Shown here: positions 2,102 through 20,536 of the stretch, in pieces
How positions within the stretch are numbered: position 1 is the stretch's first letter
How the letters are laid out: each line of letters opens with the position of its first letter
NCBI GenBank assembly: GCA_049512415.1
Contig: JBEKXD010000020.1
Coordinates: forward strand, 732 to 64,731
DNA from: Polyangiaceae bacterium
GTDB lineage: Bacteria; Myxococcota_A; Polyangia; Polyangiales; Polyangiaceae
DNA: 64,000 nt
Reading direction: 5' to 3'
Translations under genes and position numbers: made by a program
The notes under the pieces: model-generated
Database searches by the model: none
Told to the model about the DNA's origin: nothing
Seen by the model: only the letters and a program-made list of their open reading frames with translations

Positions 2102-5100
2102 ATGAAAACGTCGACCAGATTCGCCTTCTCGGTGTTCTCCGGGCTCCTCTGCGCGTTGGGCGTGGTTGCAAGCCCCTCGACCGTCTTCGCGCAGCCGGTC
2201 GACGCCAATCCGCCGCTGCCCAACGTGCTCCTGCTGCTCGACAACTCGGGCTCGATGGACCGCATGATCGACGGCACGCTGCCGGAGGACACTCCGGCGA
2301 ATGCGTGCGACTGCAACGCGACGACGGGATCCTGTACGTGGGTCTCGCCGGCTAGTCCCAATCGTTGGGGGCTGATGACGCAGGCGATGACCGGAAACTT
2401 CTCCAATGGATACCACTGCGCGGCGATGCCGCGGACGCCGGGCAGCCTCTTCGCCCAGGAATACCAGATTGGGGGCGTTGCCCCGTACGATATCAACTAC
2501 TATCTACCATTTCACCGCCCCATCGCCGAAGACACCACGACCGCGACGCAGCCGATGGCCTGTGTGTACGCGCCGGGAGCGCTGCCGGGAGCGGCATCCG
2601 GTCAAGGTGTGGGCCCGACGGCTGCAGGGGCTGGCGGCAATGCCACCGACTTCCCGAGTGGCGCGATCGTGACGCACTCCTACGGCGTCCAGAACACGAC
2701 AGCGTGCGCATTTGCTCAAGACGCGAGCGGCGCCCTCGATACCGCCCGGGACCTCATGCGCTTCGGGCTCATGACGTTCGACCAGGACCCAAGCCCGGGA
2801 ATCGGAGTCACGACCGGGGCCAGCCCTCAGGTCCTGAGCCCGCCGTTCAACGGGATGTGGTCGTATTTCCCAGGTTGGAACACGGGTGCCGCGTGCACTT
2901 ACTACGGCAATCCCGCCAGCTGCACCACGCAAGACCTCTTCGCCGTGGGCGCTCGCAATCCGGCGGCTCCCCCGTGGGAGGGGCGCATGATGCTCTTTCC
3001 CTCCACGAACGAAATTACGACCCAAGAGCAAGTCAACAACCAGATTCAGCAGGTCATTCTGGCTACGCGGCCCTACGGCGCGACCCCTCTCGCGGGAATG
3101 ATGGTCGGTGCCAAATACTACTTTTGGACCGATCCGCAGGGGCCGCAACAAACCGACGGATATGTCCAGGGCAAGTGCCGAAACGAATTCATCATCGTGA
3201 TCACGGACGGCGCCCCGAACCTCGACTTACAGCCGTCGTGCAGCGCCGCGGGCAGCCCGCCGGGACACTGCCCCTTCCCTACGCCGGATGTCACCGCCAA
3301 GAGCCTCTATCAGCCGGCAGCGAACTCGAATCAACAGGTGGTCACGTACGTCCTCGGGTTTGCCGTCTCGTCGTTTACGGATCAGGGCACGCTCGTCAAC
3401 TGCTCCAACCTGGTGACCAACGGCACGCTGTCGACGACGTGCAACTCCACGGACCCATCCGTTCAGGCCCTTTATGGCCCCTGCTGCGAGCTGCAGCTCA
3501 TCGCCCTCAGCGGGGGCAGCGGCCACGCCTACTTCGCCGATACGCCGGGCGATCTCAACGCCGCCCTCGGGTCGATCCTCGCCGACATTGCCAAGAACGC
3601 GACGACGCGCACGACGCCGGCGTACTCGCCGGTGACGACGAACGTGGTGGCGAACCCGGATACCCCGGTGACCAACGCCTCTATCTTCCTTGCGTCCTTC
3701 ACGCCGAGCGTGGGGAGCCCGTGGTCCGGCGATGTTCAGCGGCAGCGCTACGAGTGCACATATACCTCCGGCGGGGGCGGAGACGCCGGCGCGGACGCCG
3801 GAGCGAAGTCAGGCTACACGGTGCCGCCTTCGAGTATCGACGTCACCAAGGGCGACGACTTCGCCACGAACCTCAATCAGCCGGGCGCGACGCGCACGTT
3901 CTATGCGTTCATGCCGGACAACTCCCTCGGCCCCGCGAACGCTTCGGGCACGATTCGGCCTTACGTCGATCCTGCAGTCGGCGACGGCATCGGTCAGTAC
4001 AAGGCGACGACGATCGTCGGAGCGGCGTTGCCGGTCATCCAGATGATTGGCACGGACGCGCTCGGGGTGACCAATACGTCGTGCGGGTACACTCCGACTG
4101 GCAGCACGACCGTGCAATATCTCTCGGCGGCCGATTGCCGGACCATGCTGCTCGACTACAGCTTTGCGCAGCCCACGTTCACCGGATCGGCCTCGAACTT
4201 TCCGTTCGTCTCGCGATACGGCAACGCCTTTGGAGACGTCTACGACGCGATCCCGATCGCCGTCGGTCCGCCGGGTTCGCTCCTCGGCGATGACGCCTAC
4301 GTCGCCTTTCGCAGCGCGTACTCGACGCGGGAGCAAGACCTCTACGTCGCCACCAACGACGGTCTCTTGCACGCGTTCTGGGCCGACGTGGCTACGAAGA
4401 CGAACAACGAACGTTGGGCGCTCATGCCGCCGGCCGTCATGCCGAATATCTTGAGTTCCTATCCTTCCAGCCACCAGTTCTTGCTCGATGGCTCTCCCAT
4501 CGTCCGGGACGTTCCCTGGACCCGCTCTCAGGGGGGGGACGCCGGCGCGGTTTCTGCCAATTGGCGTACGACGCTCGTAGCGAGCTTCGGCTCGTACCAG
4601 AAGGGCTACTACGCGCTCGACGTGACCAACCCTTGCCCCAACTGTACGACCTCGACGACCTCGCTGCCGCCTGGTTCGCTGTCCAACGTTAACGGGGGGA
4701 TTCCGGACGAGACGGCCCCGCCGATGGGCCCAACGTTTCTGTGGCAGCTGACGACCATGCCGAGCGGCAATGCTCCGCTCTTTGCATCGCAATCGGCCAC
4801 CCCGGCGATCACGTCTGTGGCGATCCTGGACCCAGTGACCAGTATCCAGGAGGAGGTGGGCGTGGCCATTCTGCCGGGTGGCCAGGACCAGGCGCCGTCC
4901 AATTCGGGTCAAGGGTGTCCACGGGCGGTCAACACAGCCGGCTCGACGTACCCGGCGAGCGACGCGACTCCCCTCAACGGGTTCCAGGCGCGAACGTCCG
5001 TGCGCTCGTGGAGCAGCTCGTGTTCGACTCCCGTCGTGGGACGTTCGGTTGCGGTCGTGCGCCTGGACACCGGCGAGATCCTCGCCGTCTTCATGCGCAA

Positions 5101-6076
5101 AGGGGACGTCCCCGCCACCGATACGCTCCTGAGGGCCGCGAAGTCGCGCATCATCGATACGCCCCTGGATTCGCCGATGACTGGAACGCCGATCGTCTAT
5201 CCGAACGATGTGGGCACCGACGCCACCAAGTTCTTCATTGGCGACGCCGACGGCACGGTGTGGCGATTCGACCTGTCCAATCCCGATTTCACGCAATGGA
5301 AGGGCGAGCTTTTTCTCGACCTCTACAACCAGACGGCGGACACCAACGCGAGCGCGGTGACTGACGGGCAGCCCATCCAAGTGAGCCCAGTGCTCTCGGT
5401 CGACCCCGCGGCGCACATCGTCCTGAACATTGCGTCCGGCAGCCAGCAGACCTTCAACACGACCGCCACGAACTTTCTCTATTCGGTGACGGAAGAAGTG
5501 CAAACCGACACGAGCGGCACATCGAGCTTGCGCGCGGTGGTCAACTGGTACCTCGGCCCGAGTGCGAGCACCGTGTGGGCCGCCGGCGAGTGCGTGTCGG
5601 GCCCGATGACCGTCTTCGACGGCGTGCTCTACTTTGCGACGTATGCGGCCCCCGCAGCGAATACTGCCGTGTGCGGTGGGGGGACGGCCAAGCTCTGGGG
5701 TCTCGACTACGTGAATCCGTTGGATCCGAGCGATCTCTCGCAGGGAGGCGTCGCTCGTCTCCTACCGCCGTCCGGCCAAACCCAAACGCTCACGCAATAC
5801 ATCACGCCCGGCTTGATTGACTCGAGCATCGCGGGCAAGGTCATCCCCGGAGTGTCCATCAACGCGACCCCCGCGTGCGCCGACCTCGGCGCTGCGGACG
5901 CTGGGACGGCGAACTCAAGTGGGGTTCCACAAAACTTCACTCCTGGTTCCTATTCGCTCTTCACGCAGATCGGCGCCCAGGGGTCCGGCGGGGCGTCGAC
6001 CAAGCAGATCAATGTCCAGGTTCCCACCCCGTCCAGTCCGACCCTGGTCGATTCGTGGGCTGCGGTGACGGAATGA
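2102..6076 (+). CDS. pilY1: PilY1-like type IV pilus tip-associated adhesin with N-terminal vWA domain
   Basis: It has a signal peptide and a MIDAS-like motif LLLLDNSGSM (nt 2240-2254). The LYVATNDGLLHAFWAD and FFIGDADGTVWRFDL motifs are typical of the PilY1/PilC beta-propeller. A GAGG lies upstream of the ATG. Confidence 0.85.
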   Translation: MKTSTRFAFSVFSGLLCALGVVASPSTVFAQPVDANPPLPNVLLLLDNSGSMDRMIDGTLPEDTPANACDCNATTGSCTWVSPASPNRWGLMTQAMTGNFSNGYHCAAMPRTPGSLFAQEYQIGGVAPYDINYYLPFHRPIAEDTTTATQPMACVYAPGALPGAASGQGVGPTAAGAGGNATDFPSGAIVTHSYGVQNTTACAFAQDASGALDTARDLMRFGLMTFDQDPSPGIGVTTGASPQVLSPPFNGMWSYFPGWNTGAACTYYGNPASCTTQDLFAVGARNPAAPPWEGRMMLFPSTNEITTQEQVNNQIQQVILATRPYGATPLAGMMVGAKYYFWTDPQGPQQTDGYVQGKCRNEFIIVITDGAPNLDLQPSCSAAGSPPGHCPFPTPDVTAKSLYQPAANSNQQVVTYVLGFAVSSFTDQGTLVNCSNLVTNGTLSTTCNSTDPSVQALYGPCCELQLIALSGGSGHAYFADTPGDLNAALGSILADIAKNATTRTTPAYSPVTTNVVANPDTPVTNASIFLASFTPSVGSPWSGDVQRQRYECTYTSGGGGDAGADAGAKSGYTVPPSSIDVTKGDDFATNLNQPGATRTFYAFMPDNSLGPANASGTIRPYVDPAVGDGIGQYKATTIVGAALPVIQMIGTDALGVTNTSCGYTPTGSTTVQYLSAADCRTMLLDYSFAQPTFTGSASNFPFVSRYGNAFGDVYDAIPIAVGPPGSLLGDDAYVAFRSAYSTREQDLYVATNDGLLHAFWADVATKTNNERWALMPPAVMPNILSSYPSSHQFLLDGSPIVRDVPWTRSQGGDAGAVSANWRTTLVASFGSYQKGYYALDVTNPCPNCTTSTTSLPPGSLSNVNGGIPDETAPPMGPTFLWQLTTMPSGNAPLFASQSATPAITSVAILDPVTSIQEEVGVAILPGGQDQAPSNSGQGCPRAVNTAGSTYPASDATPLNGFQARTSVRSWSSSCSTPVVGRSVAVVRLDTGEILAVFMRKGDVPATDTLLRAAKSRIIDTPLDSPMTGTPIVYPNDVGTDATKFFIGDADGTVWRFDLSNPDFTQWKGELFLDLYNQTADTNASAVTDGQPIQVSPVLSVDPAAHIVLNIASGSQQTFNTTATNFLYSVTEEVQTDTSGTSSLRAVVNWYLGPSASTVWAAGECVSGPMTVFDGVLYFATYAAPAANTAVCGGGTAKLWGLDYVNPLDPSDLSQGGVARLLPPSGQTQTLTQYITPGLIDSSIAGKVIPGVSINATPACADLGAADAGTANSSGVPQNFTPGSYSLFTQIGAQGSGGASTKQINVQVPTPSSPTLVDSWAAVTE

Positions 6077-6657: not shown

Positions 6658-8259
6658 GTGCCCGAGCTGCTGCGCGGCGGCATGCAGGACGGCAATCTCA
6701 CATCGACGACGGACCTAGGACGCGCAGGCCGCTCCGCGGGGCGGGGTGGGCTCGCCGTGCTCGGGGCGAAGGTCTTCTTCCTTCTCGTCGGCTTTGCCCA
6801 GCAGCCGCTCTTGCGTCTGGTCGTGGGGCTCCATGATTTCGGAGCCCTCGCGCAGGCGCTCGTCGTAGCCAATACGGTCAATAACGTCGTCGTGGCGAGC
6901 GCGACGCAGGGTGTGAGCCGCGCGGTGGCGGGAGCCGAGGGCACGGAGCACTTCGCGTTTCGGTCCACGCTCAAGGTCCACATTCTCCTTGCGTTTGCCG
7001 TGGCTGGACTCGTTGCCGCAACCGCCCCTCTCTACGCACGTTTCGAGCGCGCCGAGGACGTCGCGCCGCCGCTCGCCGTGCTCGCCGGTGTGGCTTTCTG
7101 CTACGGCGTCTATGCGCCGCTCATCGGCGCCCTCAACGGCACACGGCGGTTCGGCCGGCAGGCGCTGCTCGACGTGACCTTCGCGATTCTTCGGACCGGG
7201 GGGATGCTCGGCGTCGGCTGGGTCTTCGTGCACCGGAGGCAGTCGGGCGTGCTTGGAACGACGGTGGGGTGGCTCGCCGCCTCCGTCCTGATCATCCCCA
7301 TCGCAGCCGGGGCTCTCCCACGATGGGGGCGTCCTTCGACAGCCGCGGTGCCGAGGGCGACTCGGAGCTACTTGGCTGTGCTCGGTCCGATCGCTGGCGC
7401 GCAGCTTTGCACCAATCTCCTGATGCAGATCGATCTCGCTCTGCTCGGACGATTCTTGAGCGAGCGGACCGCCGAGTCGGCCCTCACGGCCGGGGGGGCA
7501 CGCGACGCGGTCAAGGTCTGGATCGCGATCTACAAGGAGTGCCAGACCTACGCGTTCCTGCCGTATCAGCTCCTCTTCAGCGTTACGCTCGTGCTCTTTC
7601 CCATGCTGGCGCGAGCGACCGCGGACGACAATCGTGCGGACGTGCGCGCGTTCGCTGCGCGCGGCGGAAGGCTCGCCGCCATCTTCTGCGGTCTTCTCGT
7701 GTCGGTCATCGTGGCGATCCCCGGTCCGCTTCTGACATTCGCCTACGGTGCGGCCGACGCCGCCCGCGGCGCGGACGTCCTTCGGATCATGGTCCTCGGA
7801 CAAGGTGCTTTCGCGATGCTTGGCGTGGCCACCACTGTGCTCACGGGCATTCGAAGCGAACGGGCCGCGGCGCTCATCACGTTCCTGGCTGTCCTCGTCG
7901 TCGGAGCGGCCTGCTACGCCTTCGTTCCGAGCGCGCCGACGGGGCACTCCCAGCTTCTGCGATCGGCGCAGGCGTCGGCGAGCGCGATGGCCGTGGCGCT
8001 GATCGTGGCGGGCGCGGTCGTTCGAGCCCGCGCAGGAGCGTTCGTGCCCGCGCTCACGATGGTGCGCGCGGGAATCGCGACCATGGTGTGCGCCGCCGCA
8101 GGGATGTTCGTGCCCCCCGTCGGGCGGGTGCTCGTCCCGGGTTTGGCGCTCGGCGTCGTGGCGCTCTACGTGTGCGTGCTGGTTGTCACCCGAGAGCTTG
8201 GCGGAGCGGACCTGGCGGCGGTTCGAATCGTGGCGCGTGGATCAGCGCGACGGCAGTAG
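6658..8259 (+). CDS. polysaccharide biosynthesis / oligosaccharide flippase family membrane protein (Wzx/MOP-like)
   Basis: The protein has about 12-14 hydrophobic segments. The N-terminal pattern GLAVLGAKVFFLLVGFAQQPLL...ATQGVSRAV resembles polysaccharide-biosynthesis (MOP superfamily) proteins. The start is GTG at 6658 or ATG at 6682. Confidence 0.65.
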   Translation: MPELLRGGMQDGNLTSTTDLGRAGRSAGRGGLAVLGAKVFFLLVGFAQQPLLRLVVGLHDFGALAQALVVANTVNNVVVASATQGVSRAVAGAEGTEHFAFRSTLKVHILLAFAVAGLVAATAPLYARFERAEDVAPPLAVLAGVAFCYGVYAPLIGALNGTRRFGRQALLDVTFAILRTGGMLGVGWVFVHRRQSGVLGTTVGWLAASVLIIPIAAGALPRWGRPSTAAVPRATRSYLAVLGPIAGAQLCTNLLMQIDLALLGRFLSERTAESALTAGGARDAVKVWIAIYKECQTYAFLPYQLLFSVTLVLFPMLARATADDNRADVRAFAARGGRLAAIFCGLLVSVIVAIPGPLLTFAYGAADAARGADVLRIMVLGQGAFAMLGVATTVLTGIRSERAAALITFLAVLVVGAACYAFVPSAPTGHSQLLRSAQASASAMAVALIVAGAVVRARAGAFVPALTMVRAGIATMVCAAAGMFVPPVGRVLVPGLALGVVALYVCVLVVTRELGGADLAAVRIVARGSARRQ

Positions 8260-8309
8260 GAAACCGGGCAGCCGCCGTCATTGCGATCGGACGACTTCAT
8301 CGCCACATG

Positions 8310-9614
8310 TCAAAGTTTCAAGACGTTGGCACGGCCCGATCCGCCATGGTCGTGAAGCACATCGCGTGTGTCGACGATGACGCGAGCTTCGTCGAGCATT
8401 CGCCGGTAGTCGATCGCGGCGTGATGCGTGACGATCACCACCGCATCGTAGGGAGCGAAGCTCGACGACGGGTCGACCGAACGCATCTTGACGTCGTGCT
8501 CGTCGACCGCGCGAACGTGCGGGTCCATGTACGCAACCTCGGCTCCCATTCTGCGGAGCTGGAGGATGATCTCGAAGGCGGGGGACTCGCGCACGTCGCT
8601 GACGTTGGCCTTGTACGCCACGCCTGCGACGAGCAATAAGGATCCATTGACCGCCTTGCGGTCGCGATTGAGGGCTTCGACGACCCGGCCGACCACGTGC
8701 ATCGGCATCGCGCTGTTGATGGCATCCGCGAGCTCGATGAACTGGGCCTGAACGTTGAGAGACCTCAGTCGCCACGACAGATAGAGCGGATCGATCGGGA
8801 TGCAGTGGCCACCGAGTCCCGGCCCCGGATAAAATGGCATGAAGCCGAAAGGCTTCGACGCCGCAGCCCGAATCACCTCCCAGACGTCGACGCCTAGGTG
8901 ATGGCACATGACCGCGAACTCATTCACGAGCCCGATATTCACGGCGCGGAACGTGTTCTCGAGGAGCTTGACCATCTCGGCGGCGTCCGTGCTCGAAACC
9001 GGCACCACGGTGTCGATCACTTTCGAATACAGAGCCTTGGCGACTTCCAAGCATGCGGGCGTCCTTCCGCCGATGACCTTCGGTGTGTTTCGCGTCCCGA
9101 AGCGCGTATTGCCAGGGTCGACTCGCTCCGGCGAAAACGCGACGAAGATGTCGCGACCGACGGTGCCCGTTTCGGAGAGGCGAGGGCAGACGAGCTCCCG
9201 TGTCGTGCCTGGGTAGGTCGTCGACTCGAGCACGACGAGCATACCGGCGTGCTGATGCGCGACGATATCGTCGGTGGCCGAGACGATAAACCGCATGTCC
9301 GGCTCCTTCGTCTTGTTGAGCGGCGTCGGGACGCACACGACGACGACATCCGCGTGCTCCAATGCGCTCGCTTGGGTCGTGGCATCGAGGAGTCGACCTT
9401 GGACGAGAGGCGCCAACTCGGCGGACGCGATGTCGCCTATGTAGGACTCGCCCGCGTTGAGCCGGCGGACCTTCTCCGGGTCCTTGTCGTAGCCGGTCAC
9501 GTGGTAGCCGGCGCGAGCGAACTCGACGACGAGTGGCAGCCCTACGTAACCGATGCCTATGACGACGATGCGAGCGGTCTTGGCCTCGATTTTGTCGATG
9601 AGCTGCGAGGGCAT
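8310..9614 (-). CDS. nucleotide-sugar dehydrogenase (UDP-glucose/GDP-mannose/UDP-ManNAc dehydrogenase family)
   Basis: It has the Rossmann motif IVVIGIGYVGLPLVVEFA and the catalytic-Cys motif GLGGHCIPIDPLYL. The length of 434 aa is typical. The substrate cannot be assigned by eye. Confidence 0.9.
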   Translation of the reverse strand: MPSQLIDKIEAKTARIVVIGIGYVGLPLVVEFARAGYHVTGYDKDPEKVRRLNAGESYIGDIASAELAPLVQGRLLDATTQASALEHADVVVVCVPTPLNKTKEPDMRFIVSATDDIVAHQHAGMLVVLESTTYPGTTRELVCPRLSETGTVGRDIFVAFSPERVDPGNTRFGTRNTPKVIGGRTPACLEVAKALYSKVIDTVVPVSSTDAAEMVKLLENTFRAVNIGLVNEFAVMCHHLGVDVWEVIRAAASKPFGFMPFYPGPGLGGHCIPIDPLYLSWRLRSLNVQAQFIELADAINSAMPMHVVGRVVEALNRDRKAVNGSLLLVAGVAYKANVSDVRESPAFEIILQLRRMGAEVAYMDPHVRAVDEHDVKMRSVDPSSSFAPYDAVVIVTHHAAIDYRRMLDEARVIVDTRDVLHDHGGSGRANVLKL

Positions 9615-9650
9615 GCTGCGGATGGTAGTCCCTCGGCGAGTGCGTGCGCT

Positions 9651-12029
9651 CTACTTTACCCCGCCGGGGCCGGAGGGCTCCGCGCAGTAGCCGTTCAAGC
9701 AAAGGTACCCGGCCCCTGCTCCGCAGCAGTCGGCCGCGGTGATGCACCTTTCGAACTCATTGGCGCACCCGATGACGCCCTTCATGCACACCAGGCCCCC
9801 GCCGTCGCCCGGGCTGCGGCAGAATCCGTCGCAGCACTGGTCCCCCGTGCTGCACGGGCTGCCATCCGGCCGGCACGGCTGGACGACCCAATAGCCCTTC
9901 ATGTCGCCGGCGTTGAGCTCTTGGCCCGGCAGGTAGAAGGCGGGATGGCTCGGGTCCACACCGCTCGTCGGATTCTGGTCGATCGCGGCGACCCAGAGCT
10001 TCTTGGTGATGGGGTGGTTGACTGGGGAGTACTGGGCGCTGTCGGTGTAGGGATCGCCCGTCGCAACGTTTCCATAAAGTCGGCGGGTCGTGAACACAAC
10101 CCAGTAGTAGCCGCCCGACGCGATGGGGTTCACGGTCGGCTCATAGTTGTAGACCGTGTCGCTCGCGTGATTCGTTCCGGCGTCGGGGAGATACGATGTC
10201 GCGCAGTCACTCCCCAAGCCGTTGAGGGCACAGAGGACCTGCGGCGTCATCTGCGAAGTCTGCCGCGCGTCGGCGATCATCAACTGCGCCGTCCCATTTT
10301 GGTACGTATTGAGCGCGGAGCCTCCCCCTGAGGCAGTGATCGTGCTTTGAAATACGACGAAGTTACCATCCGGCGAGAAGGACGGCCATCCGGCGTAGCG
10401 CTTGGGATTGTTGTAAATCTGACGAAGGTTGGTAAACGAATAGGGCGGAGCGCCGCACGTCACGCTGCCCGCCGTCGCACCGCAATCAAAGTCCATGACC
10501 GCCAGCGACCCCTCTCCCGGCGTCGCCCCCGCGTCGGCGTTGGACACCCCTTGCCGGAAGTTGAACGCCACGTGCTGACCGTCCGGAGAAAAGGCCGGCG
10601 TGACGGCTTGCTGCACGAGGCTCTTGAAGCCCGTCGATGGAATCGAAAGTAGCGTGCCGCGATCGAAAATGTCCGAGTTGCTCGTGTAAGCCCACCAGTT
10701 GTCGTTGGAGTTCGCCAGGCCAAATGTGCCGTCCGGGTAGAGGCCCGAATACGTGAATATTCCTTGAGCGTAAGGATTGATGAGCGCCCCGGCGTTCGTC
10801 AGATCGTAGGAGCCACCATTGTACGTCCCGGAGGTGTTGTACTGGCCGTAGGTCGCGAACAGACTCGACCCGTTGGCCGACACTTCGTGGCACACGTGAC
10901 AAGTGCCTTGGAGCGACGGGATCGCGAGCGTCGGGGCGGGAGCTCCAGGCTGGATCTGCAGCACTGCGCCTTGGGGTACGCCCGCATCGCTGACGTTCAA
11001 GACCGTGAGGTACGAGGCGTAGTAGACGACTCCCTGTAGGATATCTGGGGAGATGATCCAGTTCTCCGCGATCGGACCGATGACGCCGTCGGCCGCCGCA
11101 ATCGTGACTTCGGCGTGCAGCTGGTCGCCCTGATTGCCGTGCGTGGCTTGGTCCCAGGCCGTCTGGTCGATCGGCTGGCGCATGAGCTGCGGGCCGGTGA
11201 GACCCGCGGCGAACGTGTAATAGCCCTTGAAGTCGAAATCGGTCTGAGACAAGTGGATGTAGACGGCCGTCGCCGTGTGAGTCGTCGTCCACTGGAGGAG
11301 CGGAGCCTGCAGGCCGCGCGGCCAGACTGTCTTGTCGTACGGGTAGAGGAAACTCATCTCCGCGGCGGAAGCGGGAGGCGTGACGGTGCCGCTGAATAGG
11401 CTCGGGTCGGCTGGCCCGCCAGGACCCTCGCCTCCGACACCCCCGTAGCCCGCCGGCCCGATGTTGCCGGCGGGCGTGCCGCCGTGATTCGTGATTGCGA
11501 TCTGCACGGTGACGGTGGTCGTACCGATGTGGGCTCCGAAGGACGCGGTGACGTTTGCGGTGCCAGGGAGAGTTCCGCTGGCTGTAAACGTTCCGCCGGT
11601 GTCGATGGCACCAAGGTCGCCGCGATCGAGAGACCACTCGGCCGGGTAGGTCGTCCCGTTGGCGCTCGCGGTGAAGGTCACGGAACTGCTGGTCACCGTG
11701 CCGTCGACGATGGTGACGCTGAGGACGGGATTCGCCGGTGTGATGGTCAGCGGGAGACCCCCGCCGTCGTCGCCGAGCGAGCCCGACGGACCGTCGTCGC
11801 CCTGCTGGACGATCGAGCCGGTGTCCACCGCCACGATGGATGAATCGTATTCTGCGCCGCTCGAGCCGTCGGTCGAAGTCGACGCATCCTTGGACGAGTA
11901 CGTCGACCCGCCCGTGTCGTCGCTGGGACCGCCGTTTGCGCAGCCGAGCGGCGCGAGCAGGACCGCCGTGACCCATAGCGGCCAAGCGAGCCACGAGAGA
12001 AGAGCGTCGAGAGATGCGATTGGCTTCAT
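9651..12029 (-). CDS. secreted lipoprotein, paralog A: Ig-like (Big_2-type) domain, CXXCH motif, PD40/TolB-like motifs, C-terminal double cystine-knot-like tail
   Basis: The lipobox is LLAPLGC. The Big_2-like segment is LTITPANPVLSVTIVDGTVTSSSVTFTASANG...TVTVQI. It also has GTCHVCHEV, the PD40-like motifs SPDGQHVAFNF and SPDGNFVVFQS, and a 12-Cys C-terminus. It is clearly a paralog of 12098..14569. Confidence 0.85.
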   Translation of the reverse strand: MKPIASLDALLSWLAWPLWVTAVLLAPLGCANGGPSDDTGGSTYSSKDASTSTDGSSGAEYDSSIVAVDTGSIVQQGDDGPSGSLGDDGGGLPLTITPANPVLSVTIVDGTVTSSSVTFTASANGTTYPAEWSLDRGDLGAIDTGGTFTASGTLPGTANVTASFGAHIGTTTVTVQIAITNHGGTPAGNIGPAGYGGVGGEGPGGPADPSLFSGTVTPPASAAEMSFLYPYDKTVWPRGLQAPLLQWTTTHTATAVYIHLSQTDFDFKGYYTFAAGLTGPQLMRQPIDQTAWDQATHGNQGDQLHAEVTIAAADGVIGPIAENWIISPDILQGVVYYASYLTVLNVSDAGVPQGAVLQIQPGAPAPTLAIPSLQGTCHVCHEVSANGSSLFATYGQYNTSGTYNGGSYDLTNAGALINPYAQGIFTYSGLYPDGTFGLANSNDNWWAYTSNSDIFDRGTLLSIPSTGFKSLVQQAVTPAFSPDGQHVAFNFRQGVSNADAGATPGEGSLAVMDFDCGATAGSVTCGAPPYSFTNLRQIYNNPKRYAGWPSFSPDGNFVVFQSTITASGGGSALNTYQNGTAQLMIADARQTSQMTPQVLCALNGLGSDCATSYLPDAGTNHASDTVYNYEPTVNPIASGGYYWVVFTTRRLYGNVATGDPYTDSAQYSPVNHPITKKLWVAAIDQNPTSGVDPSHPAFYLPGQELNAGDMKGYWVVQPCRPDGSPCSTGDQCCDGFCRSPGDGGGLVCMKGVIGCANEFERCITAADCCGAGAGYLCLNGYCAEPSGPGGVK

Positions 12030-12097
12030 AGGGGTGACCCGCTTCCGGTCTACGGTCGTGATTGCGAGCTAAGAAGGTGCAGACAAGGGTGCGGATG

Positions 12098-14569
12098 TTA
12101 AAAAACCTTGGTCGGGCTTGAGGGCTCCGAGCAGTATCCGTTCAAGCAGAGGTATCCGTCGGCAGCTCCGCAGCAGTCGGCGGCCGTGATGCACTTTTCG
12201 AACTCGTTGGCGCAGCCGGGGACGACCTTCATACAGACCAGTGCCCCGCCTCCCGCCGGGCTGCGGCAAAAGCCTCCGCAGCACTGGTCCCCAGACGTGC
12301 ACACGCTGCCGTCGGGTCTGCATGGGTCGACGACCCAGTAGCCTTTCATGTCGCCCGCGTTGAGCTCTTGGCCGGGGAGATAGAACGCGGGATGGCTCGG
12401 GTCTTTGCCCGCCGTCGGGTTCTCGTCGATCGCGGCGACCCAGAGCTTCTTGGTGAGAGGATAAGTGGACGCACCGTACTCGTTATCATATGGCCCGCTC
12501 TGGGCAATATTGCCGTACGCTCGACGCGAAGTGAAAACGACCCAGAAATACCCGCCCGACGCGACGGGGTTCACGTTCGGCTCGTAGTTGTGGACGGTGT
12601 CCGTCGTGTGATCCTGCTTGGGTACATCGTTCGCCGAGGTGTCGAGCGGCCCGACCACCGGCAGGTAGGAGGTAGCGCAGTCACTCTGTAGGCCGTTGAG
12701 TGCGCAGAGGCGTTGCGGCTGCATCTTCGGCGGCTGCCGCGTGTCGGCGATCATGAGCTCGGCTGTAGCCCCGGAGTACGTATTGAGCACCGAATTGGTG
12801 GGGTAAGGGGGGGAGTTGCCGTTGTTCACCGACGGGTTGATGGTGCTTTGGAGCACGACGAAATTGCCGTCGGGAGTGAAGGACGGCCAGCCGGGATAAC
12901 GGGTAGGGTCGCTATAGATCTGGCGAAGATTGCTGAACGCGTAGGGCGGTGCGCCGCACGTTACGCTCCCAGCCGACGCGCCACAGTCGAAGTCCATCGC
13001 GTCCAGCACATGCCCAACGCCTGTGACTCCACCGTCGATGATTTGAGTGGGAGGGTAGTTGAACGCGACGTGTTGCCCGTCCGGCGAGAAGGACGGGGTC
13101 ACGGCCTGGGTGATCAGGTTGGTGAAGCCGGTCGAGGGAATGGCGAGGAGAGTGTCTCGCGAAAAGATGTTCGAGGCCTCTCGGAAGGACCACCAGTTGT
13201 CCATCGAGTTTGCGAGCGCAAACGTTCCATCGGGGTAGATACCCCCATAGGTGAACTTACCTTCGACGTCGTAATAGCCAATTCCATTGCCTTCGGCCGT
13301 CTGGTCGTATGCTTTGATGAGCGCGCCGCCGTCCGTGAGGTCGTACGACCCGCCCAGGCCGTAGTCCCATGTCAGTCCGTTGGCCGCAAACAGCGTAGAC
13401 CCATTGGCCGACACCTCGTGGCACACGTGACACGTGCCCTTGAGCGATGGGATGGCGAGCGTCGGCGCCGCCACGCCGGGTTGAATCTTCATGACGGCCC
13501 CCTCTGGATTGCCCGCATCGTCGAGATTTAGGACGGTGCTGTACGTTCCGTAATAGACAGTGCCTTGAAGGATATCGGGGGAGATAATCCAATCCTCTGC
13601 GATGGGACCGAATACGCCGTCGGCCGCGGCGATCGTAACCTCGGCATGGAGCGCGTCGCCCTGGTTGCCGTGCGTGGCCTGATCCCACGCGGTCTGGTCG
13701 ATCGGCTGGCGCATCAGCTGGGGCCCCGGCGTCAGCCCGGCCGCGAACTGGTAGTATCCCTTGAAGTCGAAATCGGTCTGCGACAAGTGGATGTACACGG
13801 CGGTGGCTGTGTGCGTGGTCGTCCACTGGAGAAGGGGAGCCGCTAGGCCGCGCGGCCAGACGGTCTTGTCGTAGGGGTAGAGAAAGCTCAGCTCCGAGGG
13901 AGAGGATGGCGCGGTGACCGTCCCCCCAAATACGCTGGCGTTCGCGGGGCCGCCGGGCCCCTCGCCCCCCACGCCACCGTAGCCGGCCGGGCCCGAGTCG
14001 CCCGCCGGCGTCCCTCCGTGATTTGTTACGGAGAGCTGCACGGTCACCGTCGTCGTGCCGAGGTGGGCTCCGAACGACGCCGTGACTGTGGCGACGCCGG
14101 GAAGGCCGCCGCTGGCCGTGAAGATGCCGCTGGCCGCGTCGATCGCGCCGATGGCCCCCTGGTCGAGAGACCACACCGCCGGGACAGTCGTGCCGCTGGC
14201 GCTCGCGGTGAAGGTCACGGAGCTCGCGGTTACGATGCCGTCGACGATCGTGACCTCGAGGACGGGGTTCGCCGGCTCCACGTCCAGTGGGCCGCCGTCG
14301 TCGCCGGAGGGGCTCGTTTGACCTCCGTCGTCGCCCCCGTAGACGATGCTTGATCCCGTGTCGGGGGGCACCACAATCGTCGCGTCGCCCCCTCCGGAGG
14401 ACGACCCGACATAGCTCGACGAGCCGTCGGAGAAGCCACCGCCGGGCTCATCGCCGCTCGTCGCACCGGTCGCGCAATGCGGCGCCGCTGTCCCCACAAA
14501 CAGGAGAAACAGTGCATATTCTAGCCATGCGAGAACCCCGTGTGACCGCGTTCTGGCGTTAGATTTCAT
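12098..14569 (-). CDS. secreted protein, paralog B of 9651..12029 (same architecture)
   Basis: It is collinear with paralog A along the whole length, with the same Big_2-like segment, GTCHVCHEV, PD40-like motifs and 12-Cys tail. It has an ATG start and a signal peptide. Confidence 0.85.
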   Translation of the reverse strand: MKSNARTRSHGVLAWLEYALFLLFVGTAAPHCATGATSGDEPGGGFSDGSSSYVGSSSGGGDATIVVPPDTGSSIVYGGDDGGQTSPSGDDGGPLDVEPANPVLEVTIVDGIVTASSVTFTASASGTTVPAVWSLDQGAIGAIDAASGIFTASGGLPGVATVTASFGAHLGTTTVTVQLSVTNHGGTPAGDSGPAGYGGVGGEGPGGPANASVFGGTVTAPSSPSELSFLYPYDKTVWPRGLAAPLLQWTTTHTATAVYIHLSQTDFDFKGYYQFAAGLTPGPQLMRQPIDQTAWDQATHGNQGDALHAEVTIAAADGVFGPIAEDWIISPDILQGTVYYGTYSTVLNLDDAGNPEGAVMKIQPGVAAPTLAIPSLKGTCHVCHEVSANGSTLFAANGLTWDYGLGGSYDLTDGGALIKAYDQTAEGNGIGYYDVEGKFTYGGIYPDGTFALANSMDNWWSFREASNIFSRDTLLAIPSTGFTNLITQAVTPSFSPDGQHVAFNYPPTQIIDGGVTGVGHVLDAMDFDCGASAGSVTCGAPPYAFSNLRQIYSDPTRYPGWPSFTPDGNFVVLQSTINPSVNNGNSPPYPTNSVLNTYSGATAELMIADTRQPPKMQPQRLCALNGLQSDCATSYLPVVGPLDTSANDVPKQDHTTDTVHNYEPNVNPVASGGYFWVVFTSRRAYGNIAQSGPYDNEYGASTYPLTKKLWVAAIDENPTAGKDPSHPAFYLPGQELNAGDMKGYWVVDPCRPDGSVCTSGDQCCGGFCRSPAGGGALVCMKVVPGCANEFEKCITAADCCGAADGYLCLNGYCSEPSSPTKVF

Positions 14570-14950
14570 AAATTCAGCAGGCTCCCGTCGCTCGTCATCA
14601 TATCTATGTGCCGGCTATCGGCTAGGTTGGCTCAACTCGCTTGGAGCCAATCCGCCCCGTGCGCCACTCGTGATGAGGGCCGGGAGCGCCGAATCTTTGG
14701 AACGTTCCCACGCTCCGGTGGCGTCCACACCAGGTCGCGACGGCCGCAGCCACTGGGGACCGAATTGAGACGAGACGAGGCCACTGCACTTTTCTTGTTG
14801 AAACGGACGAGCGGCAAGTAAGGCGGTCTGCCACAAATTGCGTTGAGATCGGAAGATTACCACTCTGAACTAGGGTATCTTATGCTTCAGCGTAGTTTAC
14901 GCGTGCCGTTCGCCAGCCCGAAAGCCGCTCACTTGGAAGGACACATAGAG

Positions 14951-17900
14951 ATGCATGCTCGTACCGAGTCACTTCCGCTTCTCGCGGCCCTCGCTCTCAT
15001 TGCCGGGCTCGCAGCCGGTTGCGGGGGAGGGGGAGCGGCGCCCGCACGTGGCTCGGAATTCGGTGACGCGTCCTTCGCGGACTCGGCTGCCAGCGCCTTG
15101 GATGCTTATTCGCAGGACGAATGGCAGGGGCTGATCGCGCCACCCGATTCGGGGGGTAGCGACTCCGCGACTCCCGCTTGCGACGGGAGCTGTTCTTCCG
15201 GAGTGGACTCGGCTTCCGCCGGCTACTGCGGCGATGGCATCATCGAGGCCGGGGAGCAGTGCGACGATGGCAACTCGGTGCCGGGTGATGGCTGCTCGGG
15301 CACGTGCCAGATCGAGCCCGGATACACGTGCCCGATGCAGGGAAAGCCCTGCGTGCTCACGGTGACTCTGACGTGCGGCGATGGCAAGATCGAGGGGAGC
15401 GAGGAGTGCGACGATGGCAACCAGACCTCGGGCGACGGCTGTTCGTCGACCTGTCAGGTCGAACCTGGCTGGGCCTGCCCAACTCCGGGCCAACCGTGCG
15501 TCCGGATCTCGACCCTCGACGCGAGCGGGCCGACGTGCGGCGATGGCATAATCGAGTCGGGCGAGCAGTGCGACGACGGCAACACGGTCTCGGGCGACGG
15601 CTGTTCCAGCACGTGCCAGCTCGAGCCGGGCTACTACTGCCCCGCGCCTGGGCAGCTTTGCAAGCTCGAATGCGGCGACGGTGTTGTCGAGTCGGGCGAG
15701 CAGTGCGATCTCGGCGCGCAGAACGGCGTGACGGGGAGCGGTTGCACCTCGACGTGCAACATCGTCCCAGGGTACGCGTGCCCGCTGGCGGGCCATCCCT
15801 GTGTCAAGCTCGGCCAGCCTACGACGTGCGGAAACGGGGTGCTGGACCCCGGAGAGCAGTGCGATCTCGGATCTCAGAACGGAGTGGCCGGAAGCGGCTG
15901 CACGGCCAATTGCTCGATAGCGCTTGGATACTACTGCGATGCGGGGACCTCGTGTGCTCAGGCGCCGCCGAACACCTGCGGCAACGGAGTGCTGGACCCG
16001 GGCGAGCAGTGCGACCTCGGCTCTCAGAACGGAGTGGCTGGCAGCGGGTGCACTGCAACGTGCACGATTCTCGCCGGCTACTCTTGCTCCGACGCGGGCA
16101 CCTGCGTGCTAAACCAGCTCGACAAGTGCGGCAACGGCGTCCTCGATCCTGGTGAGCTGTGCGACGACGGAAACACCGTGCCGGGCGATGGCTGCTCGGG
16201 CACGTGCACGATTGAGCCAGGCTGGTCGTGTCCCGACGTGGGCCAGCCTTGCGAGCGCGTCTGGGTCTGCGGAAACGGGATTGTGGACCCCGGCGAGCAG
16301 TGCGACTTGGGGCTGCTCAACGAAGGCGATGCCGGGACGTCGACGAGTGGATGCACCTCTTCTTGCCAAGTGGCGACCGGCTACACGTGCACCAGCGCCT
16401 CGGCCGGCGGGGGCGGCGCTGACGCTGGGACGGTGGACGCGGCCGTGGTCGACGCGTCCGTGGTCGACGCGTCCGTCGGCGACGCGACGGTCGGCGATGC
16501 GACCGCAGCGGATGCTGCCGCGGCCGACGCGGCGGCGGTCGAAGCTGCCGTGGTCGATGCGGCCCCCGCCGGCACGACCGACGCGGGCAGCGTGTGCACC
16601 AAGATCAACCTGTGCGGCAACGGCGTGGTCGACGTTGCGGCCGGAGAGCAGTGCGACACCGGGCCTCTCAACGGAACCGGCGGCTGCACGACGTCCTGTA
16701 CGATCGTGTCGGGCTGGACCTGTCCGAGCGGAGGGCACTTCGCTTGCACCACCGTGTGCGGTGACGGGATCGTCGCCGGCTACGAACAGTGCGACTTCGG
16801 TTCGGCCAACGGCAGCACCGACGCCGGCGTGAGCGCGTGCACGACCGCGTGCACGATTCAGTCGGGGTATGCGTGCAGCAACAAAGGGCCGGCGACCAGC
16901 CAGGCCGATTGCCACGTCACCGTCTGCGGCGACGGAACACCGGAGGGCGCCGAAGAGTGCGACGACGGCAATCTCCGGCCATACGATGGGTGCTCGCCCT
17001 GGTGCAAGATCGAGCCGACGTGCGCCAAGGGCAGCTGCACCGCCGTCTGCGGAGATGGACAGGTGACTTCGCCGGAGGAGTGCGACGATGGCAACACGGT
17101 CTCGGGAGACGGGTGCAGCAACGTTTGCAAGATAGAGCCCGGGTGGACCTGCACGACCGTTGTCGAGCCGCCCGGCGCCTCGATCATCGTCCCCATTCTC
17201 TTCAGGGACATGCACTACTGCAACGCGGCGGACTGCGGCCAGCAGGGCGACGGGTACACGTCAGCCAACACGCTCCTAACACCGAACACGCCGCCGAACG
17301 GGCACCCGGATTTCAATCGAGACTCGTACGAACCCGGGACCACTCCGCGAACCGGACTGGTGGCCCAGCAGCTAGGCACCGACAACGAGCCGGTGTTCGC
17401 GTCGACCACGGGGGATGACCCGACCAGCCCGGCGCTGACCGGAGCCGTCCCCTTCTGCTGGTGGTACCACGATACCGGCTGCAGCGGGGCCGGCAGCACG
17501 AATCCGTACGCCATGGACGTCTGGCTCGATGCCGTCCAGAATCCGATGACCCTCCAGCTCACGCCCCAGGTCGCGGGCTCGACAGTATACGAGTTCAACA
17601 ACCAGGCGTTCTTCCCGCTCAACAACTTGGGCTGGGACAACCCGAGCGCCACGCTCAATCCTTACTGGTACAACGACCCGCAGACGTCCGCGGGCAAGGA
17701 CGGCGCGGGCAACGCGGTAGCCGGAGTCCAGAATTTCTCGTTCACGAGCGAGCTCCACTATCGCTTCACCTACCAGGCTATGTTGGCGGCCAGCGCCAAC
17801 CCGCCGGCTTTCACGTTTACCGGCGACGACGACGTCTGGGCGTTCGTGAACGGTCAACTGTTCATGGACCTCGGCGGCATGCACCCGGCCAAGTCGGGGT

Positions 17901-19351
17901 CGGTGACGCTCAACACGACCGAAGGCACCGCGTTGGGGCTCGTCGACCAGGGCATCTATTCGATCGATGTCTTCCAGGCCGAGCGGCACGTGACCCAGTC
18001 GACGTACCTGCTCACCATGCAGGATTTCATTCACCAGATCTCCCAGTGCACGGCGTCCTGCGGGGACGGTCTGCCCGCGGCGGGCAAGCAGTGCGACTTG
18101 GGCGCTGCGAACAATACGGGCTCCTACGGCGGGTGCACGAAGACGTGCACCCTGGCGGGCTACTGCGGCGACGGCATCGTCCAAAATCCGCCCGAGCAGT
18201 GCGACTTGGGCGCTGCCAACAACACGGGCGGCTACGGCGGGTGCAACGCCAACTGCACCCGCGGACCCTACTGCGGCGACGGCAGTGTCGAGCCGCCCGA
18301 GCAGTGCGACTACGGGACCGCGAACAACACGGGCGGCTACGGCGGATGCACCGCCAATTGCACGCTGGGGCCCTACTGCGGCGACGGCAAGATTCAGCCC
18401 CCGGAACAGTGCGACGATGGTACGGCGGGCAACACGGGCGGCTACGGGGGGTGCAACGCCAACTGCACGCTCGCGCCCTACTGCGGCGACGGAGTGATCG
18501 AGGGCACCGAACAGTGCGACGACGGGGTCAATAACGGAACCGTCTACAGCGACTGCACGACTCAGTGCCAGACCAAGTGCACGACATGCACGGTGACGGG
18601 ATTCTGCGGCGACGGCATCCTCCAGCCGCCCGAGCAGTGCGACTTGGGCACCGCGAACAACACCGGCGGATACGACGGCTGTAACCCGGACTGCACACTC
18701 GGCCAGTACTGCGGGGACGCCAAGGTCGAGACTCCGCCCGAGCAGTGCGACTTGGGCACCGCGAACAACACCGGCATCTACGGAGGGTGCGAGCCGAACT
18801 GCACGCTCGCGCCCTATTGTGGCGACGGGACCGTGCAGCCCCCGGAGCAGTGCGACGACGGGGCGGGCAACGTTCCGCCGACGGGTGCCTACGGCTACGG
18901 CCTTTGCACCACGAATTGCACGATTGCGCCGTTCTGCGGCGACGGGACCGTGCAGGCGCCTGAGCAGTGCGACGACGGCATCGCGAACGGCACGGCGGCG
19001 AGCAACTGCGACACGCAGTGCCGCACCAAGTGTGGCAACGGCATCGTCGACCCCGGCGAGCAGTGCGACTTCGGGACGGCGAACAACACGGGCGCCTACG
19101 GTGGGTGCAAGGCCGACTGCACGCTCGCGCCCTATTGCGGGGACGGGACCAAGCAGGATCCGCCCGAGCAGTGCGACAACGGCAAGAACAACCAGCCGGT
19201 GGCGACCGCCTACGGCGCCGGAGTGTGTACCGCCGCGTGCACGAACGCACCGTTCTGCGGCGACGGGATCGTGCAGTCTCAGTTCGGCGAGGTCTGCGAC
19301 AGCACGCCGAACTGCACGAGCACCTGTACGTTCAAGAGCGGCGTCAAGTAG
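14951..19351 (+). CDS. giant secreted lipoprotein: ~24 'Myxococcus cysteine-rich repeats' flanking a fibro-slime/PA14-like domain
   Basis: The ATG at 14951 gives [24 protein letters not shown] (lipobox). Repeats follow the pattern CGDG..[9 protein letters not shown]..(S/P)GDGCS..C..E.G(Y/W).C. The central part has [12 protein letters not shown]...GLV and [23 protein letters not shown], the fibro-slime signature. Confidence 0.85.
   Translation: [1466 protein letters not shown]
16433..16567 (+). repeat. 9 tandem copies of a 15-nt unit inside the giant protein, encoding (V/G/A)-D-A-(A/S/T)-(V/A) pentapeptides
   Basis: Read directly: gtggacgcggccgtg / gtcgacgcgtccgtg / gtcgacgcgtccgtc / ggcgacgcgacggtc / ggcgatgcgaccgca / gcggatgctgccgcg / gccgacgcggcggcg / gtcgaagctgccgtg / gtcgatgcggccccc. 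Confidence 0.85.
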
Positions 19352-19423
19352 AAAGACCTAGACGACCGGGGAAACCGGTTCGATCCTGCGCGTGGTACAC
19401 CGCGGCTTGTGAGGTGCGTCTCC

Positions 19424-20536
19424 ATGCGAATGAGCGTTCCGGTTATGGCGCTTTCGTTGGCTTGTGTTCTGTCCGGGGCCTGCAACTCGCCCAGCTCCCA
19501 CGGAACGCCTCCTCCCCCGCAGCCGGCCCCAGCCAGCGACGCGGCTGCAGAGCACGCCGACCTGTGCGCCGGGGGCGGAGGTCAAGACATCGACGCGATA
19601 AGCGCTCCCTTCGTTCCGCGCGCTGGCGGCGGCTATTGCCTCGACCCACAGGGCGAGCCGAAGACGTACGGCGACAAGGGAAAGTTTTCGATGGACGAAG
19701 TGTGCACGACCGCCTTCGACGGTGAGTGCGATGTATACAAACGCTTTGGCCTGGATCGGCTCGTGTTGCTCCGTTACGTGGACGGATCGGGGGCCCCGAA
19801 CAGCGTGGAACTCAGCTTGTCGCGGTTCGCCACGGTCGACGGAGCCTACTCGATGTTCACCAAGCGCGTGGTGGCGGACGCGGATCCGGCGCAGGCTAGC
19901 GTCAAGCCGCTCACGGCCGGCGGCGCTGCGGCCCTCGGAAGCAGCAACGCGTACGTGTGGCGGGGCGTCTATCTCGCCGAGCTGACGTTCGTCTCGGAAG
20001 ACCCGAAGATGACCCCGGCGATGATCGCGGCCGCGAACGGGCGGTCGACGGCTCTCATCGCCCGCGAGATAGGATCCAAGCTCCCTGGCCCCCTCGATCT
20101 CCCTGCCTCCGCGGCAGCCCTTCCGACCGCGTCGCGGATTGCGCTCGGCGTCGCCTACCATCCCAAGGATGCGCTGGGGATTTCGGGAATCGGTCCGGTG
20201 GCGGTCGGATACTACCGGGAAGGCGACAAGCGCTGGCGCTGTGTGGCCCTAGTGCGCTCGGACGTCGAGGGGGCGAAAGAAGCGATGCGAGCCTTCAAGC
20301 TCAAGGGCGGCGGCGCTTCGATCAAGGGCGTGGGAGACGACGCGGTATTTGCGATGCTCCAAGACGCCTCCGAGCGCTCCAGGACGGCCTACGTCATTGC
20401 ACGCAAGGGGACACTCGTAGCGGCCATCGGCGATGAAGAGTTCGCCGCGGGATCGGAAATCGGCGGCGATGCCGCCCCCGCGATCAAGCTTTCGAAGGAA
20501 GAAAAGGTCGCGAAGCTCGCGAGCTGGGTGAAGTAG
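19424..20536 (+). CDS. lipoprotein of unknown function
   Basis: MRMSVPVMALSLACVLSGAC is a signal peptide with a lipobox. A GAGG lies about 10 nt upstream of the ATG at 19424; the track GTG at 19409 is also possible. G/C third-position bias holds throughout. Confidence 0.6.
   Translation: MRMSVPVMALSLACVLSGACNSPSSHGTPPPPQPAPASDAAAEHADLCAGGGGQDIDAISAPFVPRAGGGYCLDPQGEPKTYGDKGKFSMDEVCTTAFDGECDVYKRFGLDRLVLLRYVDGSGAPNSVELSLSRFATVDGAYSMFTKRVVADADPAQASVKPLTAGGAAALGSSNAYVWRGVYLAELTFVSEDPKMTPAMIAAANGRSTALIAREIGSKLPGPLDLPASAAALPTASRIALGVAYHPKDALGISGIGPVAVGYYREGDKRWRCVALVRSDVEGAKEAMRAFKLKGGGASIKGVGDDAVFAMLQDASERSRTAYVIARKGTLVAAIGDEEFAAGSEIGGDAAPAIKLSKEEKVAKLASWVK

Follow-up and report, generated by a model that had tools for sequence, protein, structure and literature searches.

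What kind of protein is encoded by two adjacent minus-strand genes that join, in a single polypeptide, a putative lipoprotein signal, an immunoglobulin (Ig)-like domain, a TolB/PD40-like beta-propeller, one CXXCH motif and a cysteine-rich tail? The genes, here called paralog 1 and paralog 2, lie in a 64,000-nucleotide stretch of DNA from a Polyangiaceae bacterium (assembly GCA_049512415.1, contig JBEKXD010000020.1, positions 732 to 64,731; hereafter the window), and the original prediction, made from the letters of this stretch, had been unable to place their architecture in any described family. The tandem pair is in itself ordinary, being one old retained duplication within a family that multiplies freely in genomes. 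The value of the locus lies in the family, which is widespread, multi-copy, expressed and unannotated, and which carries an invariant haem-type motif in an odd place. I tentatively propose, with slightly less than even confidence, that the products of both genes are exported propeller proteins, anchored by a lipid and each bearing one covalently bound c-type haem.

The CXXCH motif is invariant across the family

Each paralog contains, as had been predicted, one CXXCH only, a CHVCH (Table 1; residues are numbered as in paralog 1). A single C-X2-C-H occupies the equivalent column in all 120 sequences of a first search and in 131 of 146 representatives; six further representatives have C-X3-C-H at this position, and the eight with neither motif are fragments. 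The form that is one residue longer, CLMTCH, is found in a Polyangiaceae clade, that of P0220, in all 119 further members (P0272-P0390). Motifs of the CX3CH and CX4CH types can bind haem. The motif is kept in all full-length members (390 sequences examined), and C377, C380 and H381 are invariant both in alignment A1, which comprises 29 relatives, and in alignment A3 (a further alignment, A2, used nine rows). The X residues vary widely (HV, RV, TV, IV, NV, QV and others) while the two cysteines and the histidine are constant; variable X residues between fixed Cys, Cys and His are typical of haem c sites. A smaller group of sequences carries CGNVCH or CANVCH.

The CXXCH, a block of conserved residues in the beta-sandwich described below and all 12 cysteines of the tail are invariant in 29 relatives down to about 45% identity, so these conserved features are not due to chance. 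Both the block and the CXXCH, which the original prediction had seen in this genome only, are thus conserved far beyond it. The only other conserved cysteines of the core are C516 and the nearly invariant C525, nine residues apart; these two can pair with each other, which leaves C377 and C380 without an obvious partner. Sequence prediction finds an export signal with a lipobox-like cysteine in every full-length member examined, and the motif should therefore reach the compartment in which haem is attached.

The core is a beta-sandwich joined to a PD40-type propeller

In the AlphaFold2 model of residues 203-718, built from 84 sequences (predicted local distance difference test, pLDDT, 90.4; predicted template modelling score, pTM, 0.91), a beta-sandwich packs onto a PD40 propeller to form the presumed functional core; the four-strand blade groups of the propeller number, on my reading of the DSSP strand groups, about six. 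The sandwich holds the block that had been singled out as conserved: it is near-identical in the two paralogs, where SFLYPYDKTVWPRGL.APLLQWTTTHTATAVYIHLSQTDFDFKGYY differs at one residue only (Q vs A), and it is invariant in the 29 relatives. The invariant positions in alignment A1 are Y229, P230, Y231, D232, T234, P237, G239, P243, L244 and W247, and the family-wide form of the block is LYPYDxTxWPxG..PLLxW. The invariant motifs of the propeller in the same alignment are FSPDG, WP..PD, GGYxWVVFTxRRxYGN, KKLWVAAID and DPSHPAFYLPGQE. That some of these would be TolB/PD40-like agrees both with the fold of the model and with the Pfam domain PD40 (PF07676, cutoff 20.9 bits), which scores 36.4 bits in paralog 1 and 19.9 bits, just below the cutoff, in paralog 2, and which is matched in 23 of the 29 relatives.

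Apart from PD40, neither Pfam nor NCBIfam gives anything above its cutoffs for the two window proteins, and the PDB holds no sequence match to the core, profile search included. A Foldseek search with the full-length model was uninformative, since it returned multi-Ig and multi-propeller receptors at template modelling (TM) scores of about 0.1-0.2; the core was therefore modelled alone, and again generic propellers only were returned (TM 0.2-0.4, about 10% identity), namely Sevenless/ROS1, thiocyanate dehydrogenase, prolyl oligopeptidase, megalin, kelch/WD40 proteins and the Bacteroides proteins BT2095 and BT1954. No known family accounts for the core, and no full-length match to a characterized family was found in Pfam, NCBIfam, the PDB or Foldseek, which upholds the original statement that the combination fits no described family. 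The segment-wise HMMER/Pfam search suggested at that time matched PD40, did not match Big_2 and left the tail below threshold, while the suggested AlphaFold and Foldseek comparison recovered an Ig-like sandwich and a generic propeller fold. The architecture is best classed as one assembled from known modules.

The nearest named relatives of the propeller are the TolB/PD40 proteins (PF07676), which share with it the FSPDG and WP..PDG blade signatures, a location in the periplasm or envelope and about six blades. TolB itself is nevertheless different: its model (TIGR02800), which has a cutoff of 343 bits, reaches only 18.7 bits here, along 36 residues, its N-terminal domain is absent, and the putative lipid anchor, the Ig domain, the novel beta-sandwich, the CXXCH and the Cys-knot tail are all additions with respect to it.

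Position of the motif and the case for a covalently bound haem

When the sequence around the motif is aligned with the next PD40 blade, H381-E-V-S-A-N-G stands against P478-A-F-S-P-D-G. The CXXCH is thus aligned with blade-opening residues, which would place the motif where the first strand of blade 2 begins. In the core model it lies in the coil leading into the blade-opening strand, and I infer from the model that this first strand is the innermost one of the blade. Propeller enzymes usually hold their cofactors at this face and in the central channel. Blade 6 displays a cluster of invariant basic and polar residues in alignment A1, with the invariant pairs R649/R650 at the end of its second strand and K676/K677 at the start of its third; by strand topology, the two pairs would be on the same face as the motif, where the propionates of a haem, or an anionic substrate, might be bound by them. 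Of the histidines, three are invariant in alignment A1 but only two in every clade. All clades keep H695, which is part of DPSHPAF and might be a distal or catalytic residue.

The pathway that I propose would begin with export by Sec, followed by lipidation at the invariant N-terminal cysteine. In the periplasm, the cytochrome c maturation system would link haem to the cysteines C377 and C380, H381 serving as proximal ligand, and the haem would come to lie at the mouth of the propeller channel. The folded core would hang from the membrane through an acidic tether of about 60 residues and an Ig-like spacer, while the putative C-terminal double cystine-knot module would stabilize the protein or make a protein contact. 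The most likely role would be that of a periplasmic or cell-surface redox enzyme, or of a redox-sensing binding protein. A further reading, somewhat less probable than haem binding as such, would make the family a new structural class among the c-type cytochromes, in which the haem would be covalently held inside a PD40 blade at the channel mouth and capped by a family-specific beta-sandwich. If true, a c-type haem inside a beta-propeller, for which no precedent was found, would imply an unrecognized extracellular or periplasmic redox activity, and a previously unrecognized haem-enzyme fold would have been amplified to several copies per genome throughout Polyangia.

Among the features by which c-type cytochromes are recognized, a conserved CXXCH/CXnCH and predicted export are present, whereas no known cytochrome fold is matched. 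Several observations weigh against a haem. No cytochrome c family or fold appears in Pfam, NCBIfam or the Foldseek top 50, and literature searches turned up no case of a CXXCH within a PD40 blade, nor a direct precedent for the family in myxobacteria or for CX3CH maturation. In the family neighbourhoods examined, the single haem would have no partner redox gene nearby to supply a pathway context. H621, a candidate distal ligand, is not conserved in divergent clades, and H695 is in a C-D loop, which by strand topology may be on the opposite face. Finally, a CXXC in an oxidizing compartment could be a plain disulfide or a metal site.

This last point is developed in the main rival reading, which I regard as doubtful. 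A non-haem propeller enzyme or binding protein would here use the C-X2/3-C-H either to hold a metal (Cu, Zn or Fe) or as a disulfide, redox-active or structural, next to a catalytic histidine at the mouth of the propeller channel, in the manner of the metal centres of thiocyanate dehydrogenase or of lactonase-type six-bladed propellers. Thiocyanate dehydrogenase, a periplasmic redox propeller enzyme with a copper centre, is indeed among the better Foldseek matches of the core (8z75, 5f75, 6g5m; TMq 0.33-0.37), one homolog has a weak Pfam match to SGL (gluconolactonase-like, E=0.018), many invariant Asp, Asn and His residues could serve as ligands, and a metal or disulfide loop could also tolerate the one-residue insertion seen in the motif; the failure to detect a cytochrome fold points the same way. 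The Foldseek matches are, however, generic, with low TM and about 10% identity (about 9-10% for thiocyanate dehydrogenase, which has no CXXCH), and the multi-His ligand sets of thiocyanate dehydrogenase, including its copper ligands, and of nitrous oxide reductase have no counterpart here. Moreover, an unfolded exported CXXCH is a substrate of the haem-attachment machinery, and spurious motifs of this type tend to be selected against.

The covalent-haem proposal can be set beside three enzymes, cytochrome cd1 nitrite reductase, quinohaemoprotein alcohol dehydrogenase and hydrazine synthase alpha, in which a single exported chain likewise contains both a propeller and a haem c bound at a CXXCH, and whose cofactor or active site is at the central channel of the propeller. 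In these enzymes haem c is in a separate domain and the propeller has six (hydrazine synthase alpha) or eight blades (PMC12758564, PMC10654088 and, in part, general background), in contrast to the present proteins, in which the motif is inside the propeller sequence itself; no such enzyme is found in the Foldseek top 50. An analogy with hydrazine synthase alpha in particular was considered and rejected for want of sequence or fold support (Pfam HZS_alpha does not match, and the enzyme is absent from the PDB profile search at E<=10) and for its other topology, in which the haem domain follows an N-terminal propeller (PMC12758564). A different parallel is offered by BT1954 and BT2095 (8okv, 8bmz and 8bn0 in the Foldseek list), lipid-anchored beta-propellers that hold a tetrapyrrole. 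Their resemblance is remote (TMq 0.2-0.3, about 9% identity), they belong to another phylum and bind cobalamin non-covalently, and they are devoid of the CXXCH, the sandwich domain and the Cys tail.

A multi-copy family found in Polyangia

A word-indexed search found at least 482 full-length relatives of about 750-820 aa, named, where a name is given, 'hypothetical', 'PD40 domain-containing', 'TolB protein' or 'dickkopf-related'. A profile search of 1.84 billion representatives gave 2592 matches at E<=1e-3, 1458 at <=1e-10 and 751 at <=1e-30, and a scan of one genome per species gave at least 584 encoding loci, the best 80 of which were used for taxonomy and copy number. These 80 belong to Polyangiaceae, Labilithrix (including L. 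luteola DSM 27648), Sorangium and Polyangiales, the rest being metagenome-assembled genomes labelled unclassified 'Myxococcales', 'delta proteobacterium', 'Proteobacteria' or 'Pseudomonadota'; Pendulispora albinea and Minicystis also carry the family. By every named source, the family has so far been found only in Polyangia, and the supposed origin of the window in Myxococcota is upheld. The survey of distribution and copy number that had been proposed thus describes a Polyangia family, with 3-4 separate loci in several genomes among the best 80 of the at least 584 loci. Two clades can coexist on one contig: a 7-Mb contig bears P0028 and P0038 in tandem, plus P0366. Some long relatives add PA14/GLEYA or lamin-tail domains.

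Polyangia are abundant predators and polymer degraders of soil and peat, with very large, poorly annotated genomes, and the family is a widespread, conserved group of their proteins, in several copies per genome, that has no functional annotation. Even if haem is not bound, it is defined well enough for a new Pfam/NCBIfam entry, which would replace the misleading names 'TolB protein' and 'dickkopf-related protein'. Since two carriers are in culture, Labilithrix luteola DSM 27648 and Pendulispora albinea, the haem question is directly testable.

An old tandem duplication under purifying selection

Both open reading frames (ORFs) have exactly the coordinates and lengths first given for them in the ORF listing (Table 1). 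In a BLASTP comparison the paralogs are collinear and 68% identical (residues 10-791 vs 12-822), and by the Nei-Gojobori method dS is 1.13, dN 0.21 and dN/dS (the ratio of nonsynonymous to synonymous substitution) 0.19. Constraint is strongest at residues 187-332, which comprise the Gly motif and the beta-sandwich (dN/dS 0.055, 89% identity), and weakest at the signal and tether (dN/dS 0.46). The duplication is thus old (dS about 1.1), and purifying selection acts on both copies. Together with metatranscriptome contigs over both genes, these values bear out the description of the pair as a retained tandem duplication. The closest database relatives of paralog 1 (P0001-P0004) are 74-82% identical to it, and among the database relatives no ortholog of paralog 2 was found above about 74% identity. 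The tandem arrangement that had drawn attention to the locus is real here but exceptional in the family: only four of the 86 loci examined have two copies close together within the fetched stretch. At another locus (L064, 6082-10449) there is a further same-strand tandem, in which ORF clustering points to a second copy that is broken or frameshifted (8163-9470, 9106-10458).

Table 1. Features of the paralog pair and of its surroundings, with positions given in the window
Feature	Positions	Strand	Description
Paralog 1	9651..12029	minus	792 aa, complete ORF, stop codon 9651-9653
Paralog 2	12098..14569	minus	823 aa, complete ORF, 68 nt upstream of paralog 1
Paralog 1, predicted type II (lipoprotein) signal peptide	11940..12029	minus	Residues 1-30, LAPLG|C, ends at Cys30
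Paralog 1, acidic S/D/G-rich disordered tether	11751..11939	minus	Residues 31-93, pLDDT 24-38
Paralog 1, Ig-like (Big_2-like) beta-sandwich	11472..11750	minus	Residues 94-186
Paralog 1, Gly-rich motif GYGGVGGEGPGGP	11412..11471	minus	Residues 187-206, between Ig domain and core
Paralog 1, beta-sandwich with LYPYDxTVWPxG..PLLQW block	11034..11411	minus	Residues 207-332, core-model pLDDT >90
Paralog 1, PD40-type beta-propeller, about six blades	9879..11033	minus	Residues 333-717, Pfam PD40 and core model
Paralog 1, CHVCH, putative c-type haem attachment site	10887..10901	minus	C377, C380, H381, translation checked
Paralog 1 tail, two 6-Cys knottin-like modules	9654..9878	minus	Residues 718-792, pLDDT about 80
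Paralog 2, CHVCH	13418..13432	minus	C380, C383, H384, translation checked
Paralog 2 tail, two 6-Cys modules	12101..12325	minus	Residues 749-823, translation checked
PilY1-like beta-propeller protein	2102..6076	plus	1324 aa
Polysacc_synt_3 flippase-like protein	6658..8259	plus	Flanks the pair
UDP-glucose/GDP-mannose dehydrogenase	8310..9614	minus	36 nt downstream of paralog 1, same strand
DUF4215 giant Cys-repeat protein	14843..19351	plus	1502 aa, eight DUF4215 repeats (Myxococcus-type, Cys-rich)

The N-terminal part of the protein

The lipoprotein or signal peptide that had been predicted for both genes is more typical in paralog 1 than in paralog 2. Cys30, which follows a hydrophobic stretch and at which lipidation would take place, is invariant in alignment A1, and inspection against the lipobox rule [LVI][ASTVI][GAS]C shows G, A or S at position -1 in 26 of the 29 relatives, positions -3 and -2 being often non-canonical. 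The presumed lipobox of paralog 2 (14480-14569, minus strand) is atypical, GTAAPH|C, with His at -1, and this copy may be processed differently from paralog 1. The acidic S/D/G-rich linker predicted to follow the signal is indeed there, disordered, and is the segment of least constraint between the paralogs.

As for the Big_2 Ig-like domain, the claim stands at the level of fold but not of Pfam family. AlphaFold2 gives a beta-sandwich with pLDDT of about 90 over residues 95-182, and Foldseek matches it to the Big_2-CBM56 structures 7r3t and 7quz with probability 1.0, while a profile comparison with the PDB finds a phage tail-tube protein C-terminal domain at E=0.06. Pfam Big_2 (PF02368) matches neither window protein, even with the isolated domain at E<=10; one homolog has a match at E=0.023. 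Many family members are without the Ig domain, and their profile matches begin at about 185-205.

The Gly-rich segment and the order of the domains are as first described. In the motif, GxGGVGGEGxGGP, residues G194, G197, G199, G200 and G204 are invariant in alignment A1 and V198 is nearly so, although the full-length AlphaFold2 model gives this part low confidence. With its invariant glycines and an equivalent part in paralog 2 too, it does not look like a loose linker; it might serve as a hinge, be processed there or form a binding loop.

The C-terminal double 6-Cys tail

The 12-Cys tail, announced at 74 aa, was found at 74-75 aa and consists of two C-x6-C-x5-CC-x(3/7)-C-x(10/4)-C modules, in which, besides the 12 cysteines, many of the residues between them are invariant in alignment A1. 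The knottin spacing C-x(3-7)-C-x(3-8)-CC fits both modules, and the toxin families match below cutoff only: Pfam gives sub-threshold matches to Conotoxin_I2, Toxin_19 and Dickkopf_N in paralog 1 and to Toxin_29, Conotoxin_I2 and Dickkopf_N in paralog 2, all under their cutoffs (13-19 bits vs 23-27), those to Dickkopf_N (PF04706, cutoff 25 bits) being of 13.3 and 14.4 bits (E = 0.11 and 0.049). Across the family the weak matches are to Toxin_29, Conotoxin_I2, Toxin_19, Toxin_12 and Dickkopf_N, and the NCBI name of one homolog is 'dickkopf-related'. The tail thus resembles inhibitor-cystine-knot toxins, including double-knot ones, and the Dickkopf domain in having two tandem modules with C-x6-C-x5-CC spacing; the toxins, however, are secreted peptides, whereas here the module is appended to the C-terminus of a putative bacterial lipoprotein of 700 aa.

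This resemblance, the lipoprotein signal and the multi-copy paralogy could suggest a polymorphic lipoprotein toxin like SitA, which is transferred by outer-membrane exchange, with the double knottin as the toxic module; SitA lipoprotein toxins are reported from myxobacteria (PMC8546572). I consider this highly improbable. The C-terminus is among the most conserved parts of the protein rather than polymorphic, ORF clustering reveals beside it no small conserved gene that could be an immunity gene, and a core so large and conserved does not resemble a delivery scaffold. The reading was rejected because the C-terminus is conserved and an immunity-like neighbour is absent.

Transcription in peat

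The stretch is present in peat metagenomes, and contigs identical to the window, from two metatranscriptomes of one study, cover 10154-11131 in paralog 1 and 12745-13769 in paralog 2. Contigs also lie over the DUF4215 gene (17343-18320), where the depth is the highest of the region, whereas the flanks at 7500-8750 and 19176-20000 have no RNA contigs although the DNA runs of the same study cover all. The RNA evidence consists of assembler contigs, and metatranscriptomes can hold DNA; the evidence that both paralogs are transcribed in peat is therefore good but not perfect. If the haem proposal is true, this expression in peat soil would suggest an extracytoplasmic redox chemistry new for these bacteria. 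A scan of 8000-15200 for promoters and terminators gave nothing above shuffled expectation. In two RNA runs (X8 and X9), contigs of depth 29-35 match only short pieces of the window, about 14043-14136 and 11690-11714, joined by seven foreign letters and with flanks unlike the window; their probable source is a paralog that another organism expresses more strongly, or else a chimera of paralogs made in the assembly.

Genomic neighbourhood

Both neighbours named in the original prediction, the giant Cys-repeat gene lying head-to-head with the pair and the sugar dehydrogenase gene downstream, were confirmed. The DUF4215 gene, whose product has a weak PA14-like region (990-1054, E=5.8e-4), is transcribed divergently from paralog 2 across a gap of 273 bp. 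A contig of a closely related genome (L004) is syntenic, with the DUF4215 gene, the homolog in one copy only, the dehydrogenase, the flippase and the PilY1-like gene, and the flanking set looks like a neighbourhood, specific to this lineage, that has to do with surface polysaccharide or pili. The link suggested by the adjacent adhesin-like and dehydrogenase genes holds in this contig only, where the gene order is kept, and is absent elsewhere: inspection of the contexts of P0028, P0077, P0071, P0003 and P0012, together with ORF clustering over 86 loci, revealed no universal neighbour. The clusters that did recur were dismissed: some were ORFs antisense to the gene itself, others were Ser/Thr kinases, which are abundant, and others reflected housekeeping synteny, the last comprising glycyl-tRNA synthetase beta-subunit-like and pyruvate phosphate dikinase-like genes (identified by eye from translations) at about 8-14 loci, mostly labelled Labilithrix.

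These surroundings bear on an unlikely reading, according to which the protein would be a non-catalytic surface adhesin or receptor whose Ig domain, propeller and cystine-knot tail would bind a matrix polysaccharide, a prey surface or a partner, the CXXCH being structural only. Besides the DUF4215/PA14-like giant, the sugar dehydrogenase, the polysaccharide flippase and the PilY1-like gene near the locus in the window and in the related contig, and the RNA contigs that also cover the DUF4215 gene, it can draw on the PA14/GLEYA or lamin-tail domains of the long family members, which are typical of surface binding proteins, and on top Foldseek matches that include receptor ectodomains (Sevenless, ROS1, megalin) and BT2095 and BT1954 as B12-binding lipoproteins. 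The neighbourhood, however, is not conserved across the family, and it is the core motifs, which look buried, and the invariant Cys-Cys-His triad that are most constrained, not the variable surface expected of adhesins; a purely structural role would also leave the invariance of the histidine unexplained.

At one further locus (L001, 4320-7305), the tandem pair P0038 and P0028 adjoins a cluster of HvfC, MbnB-TglH-ChrH (DUF692-type) and YceI-like genes. A related cluster recurs in five loci, and this co-occurrence is probably a matter of lineage synteny.

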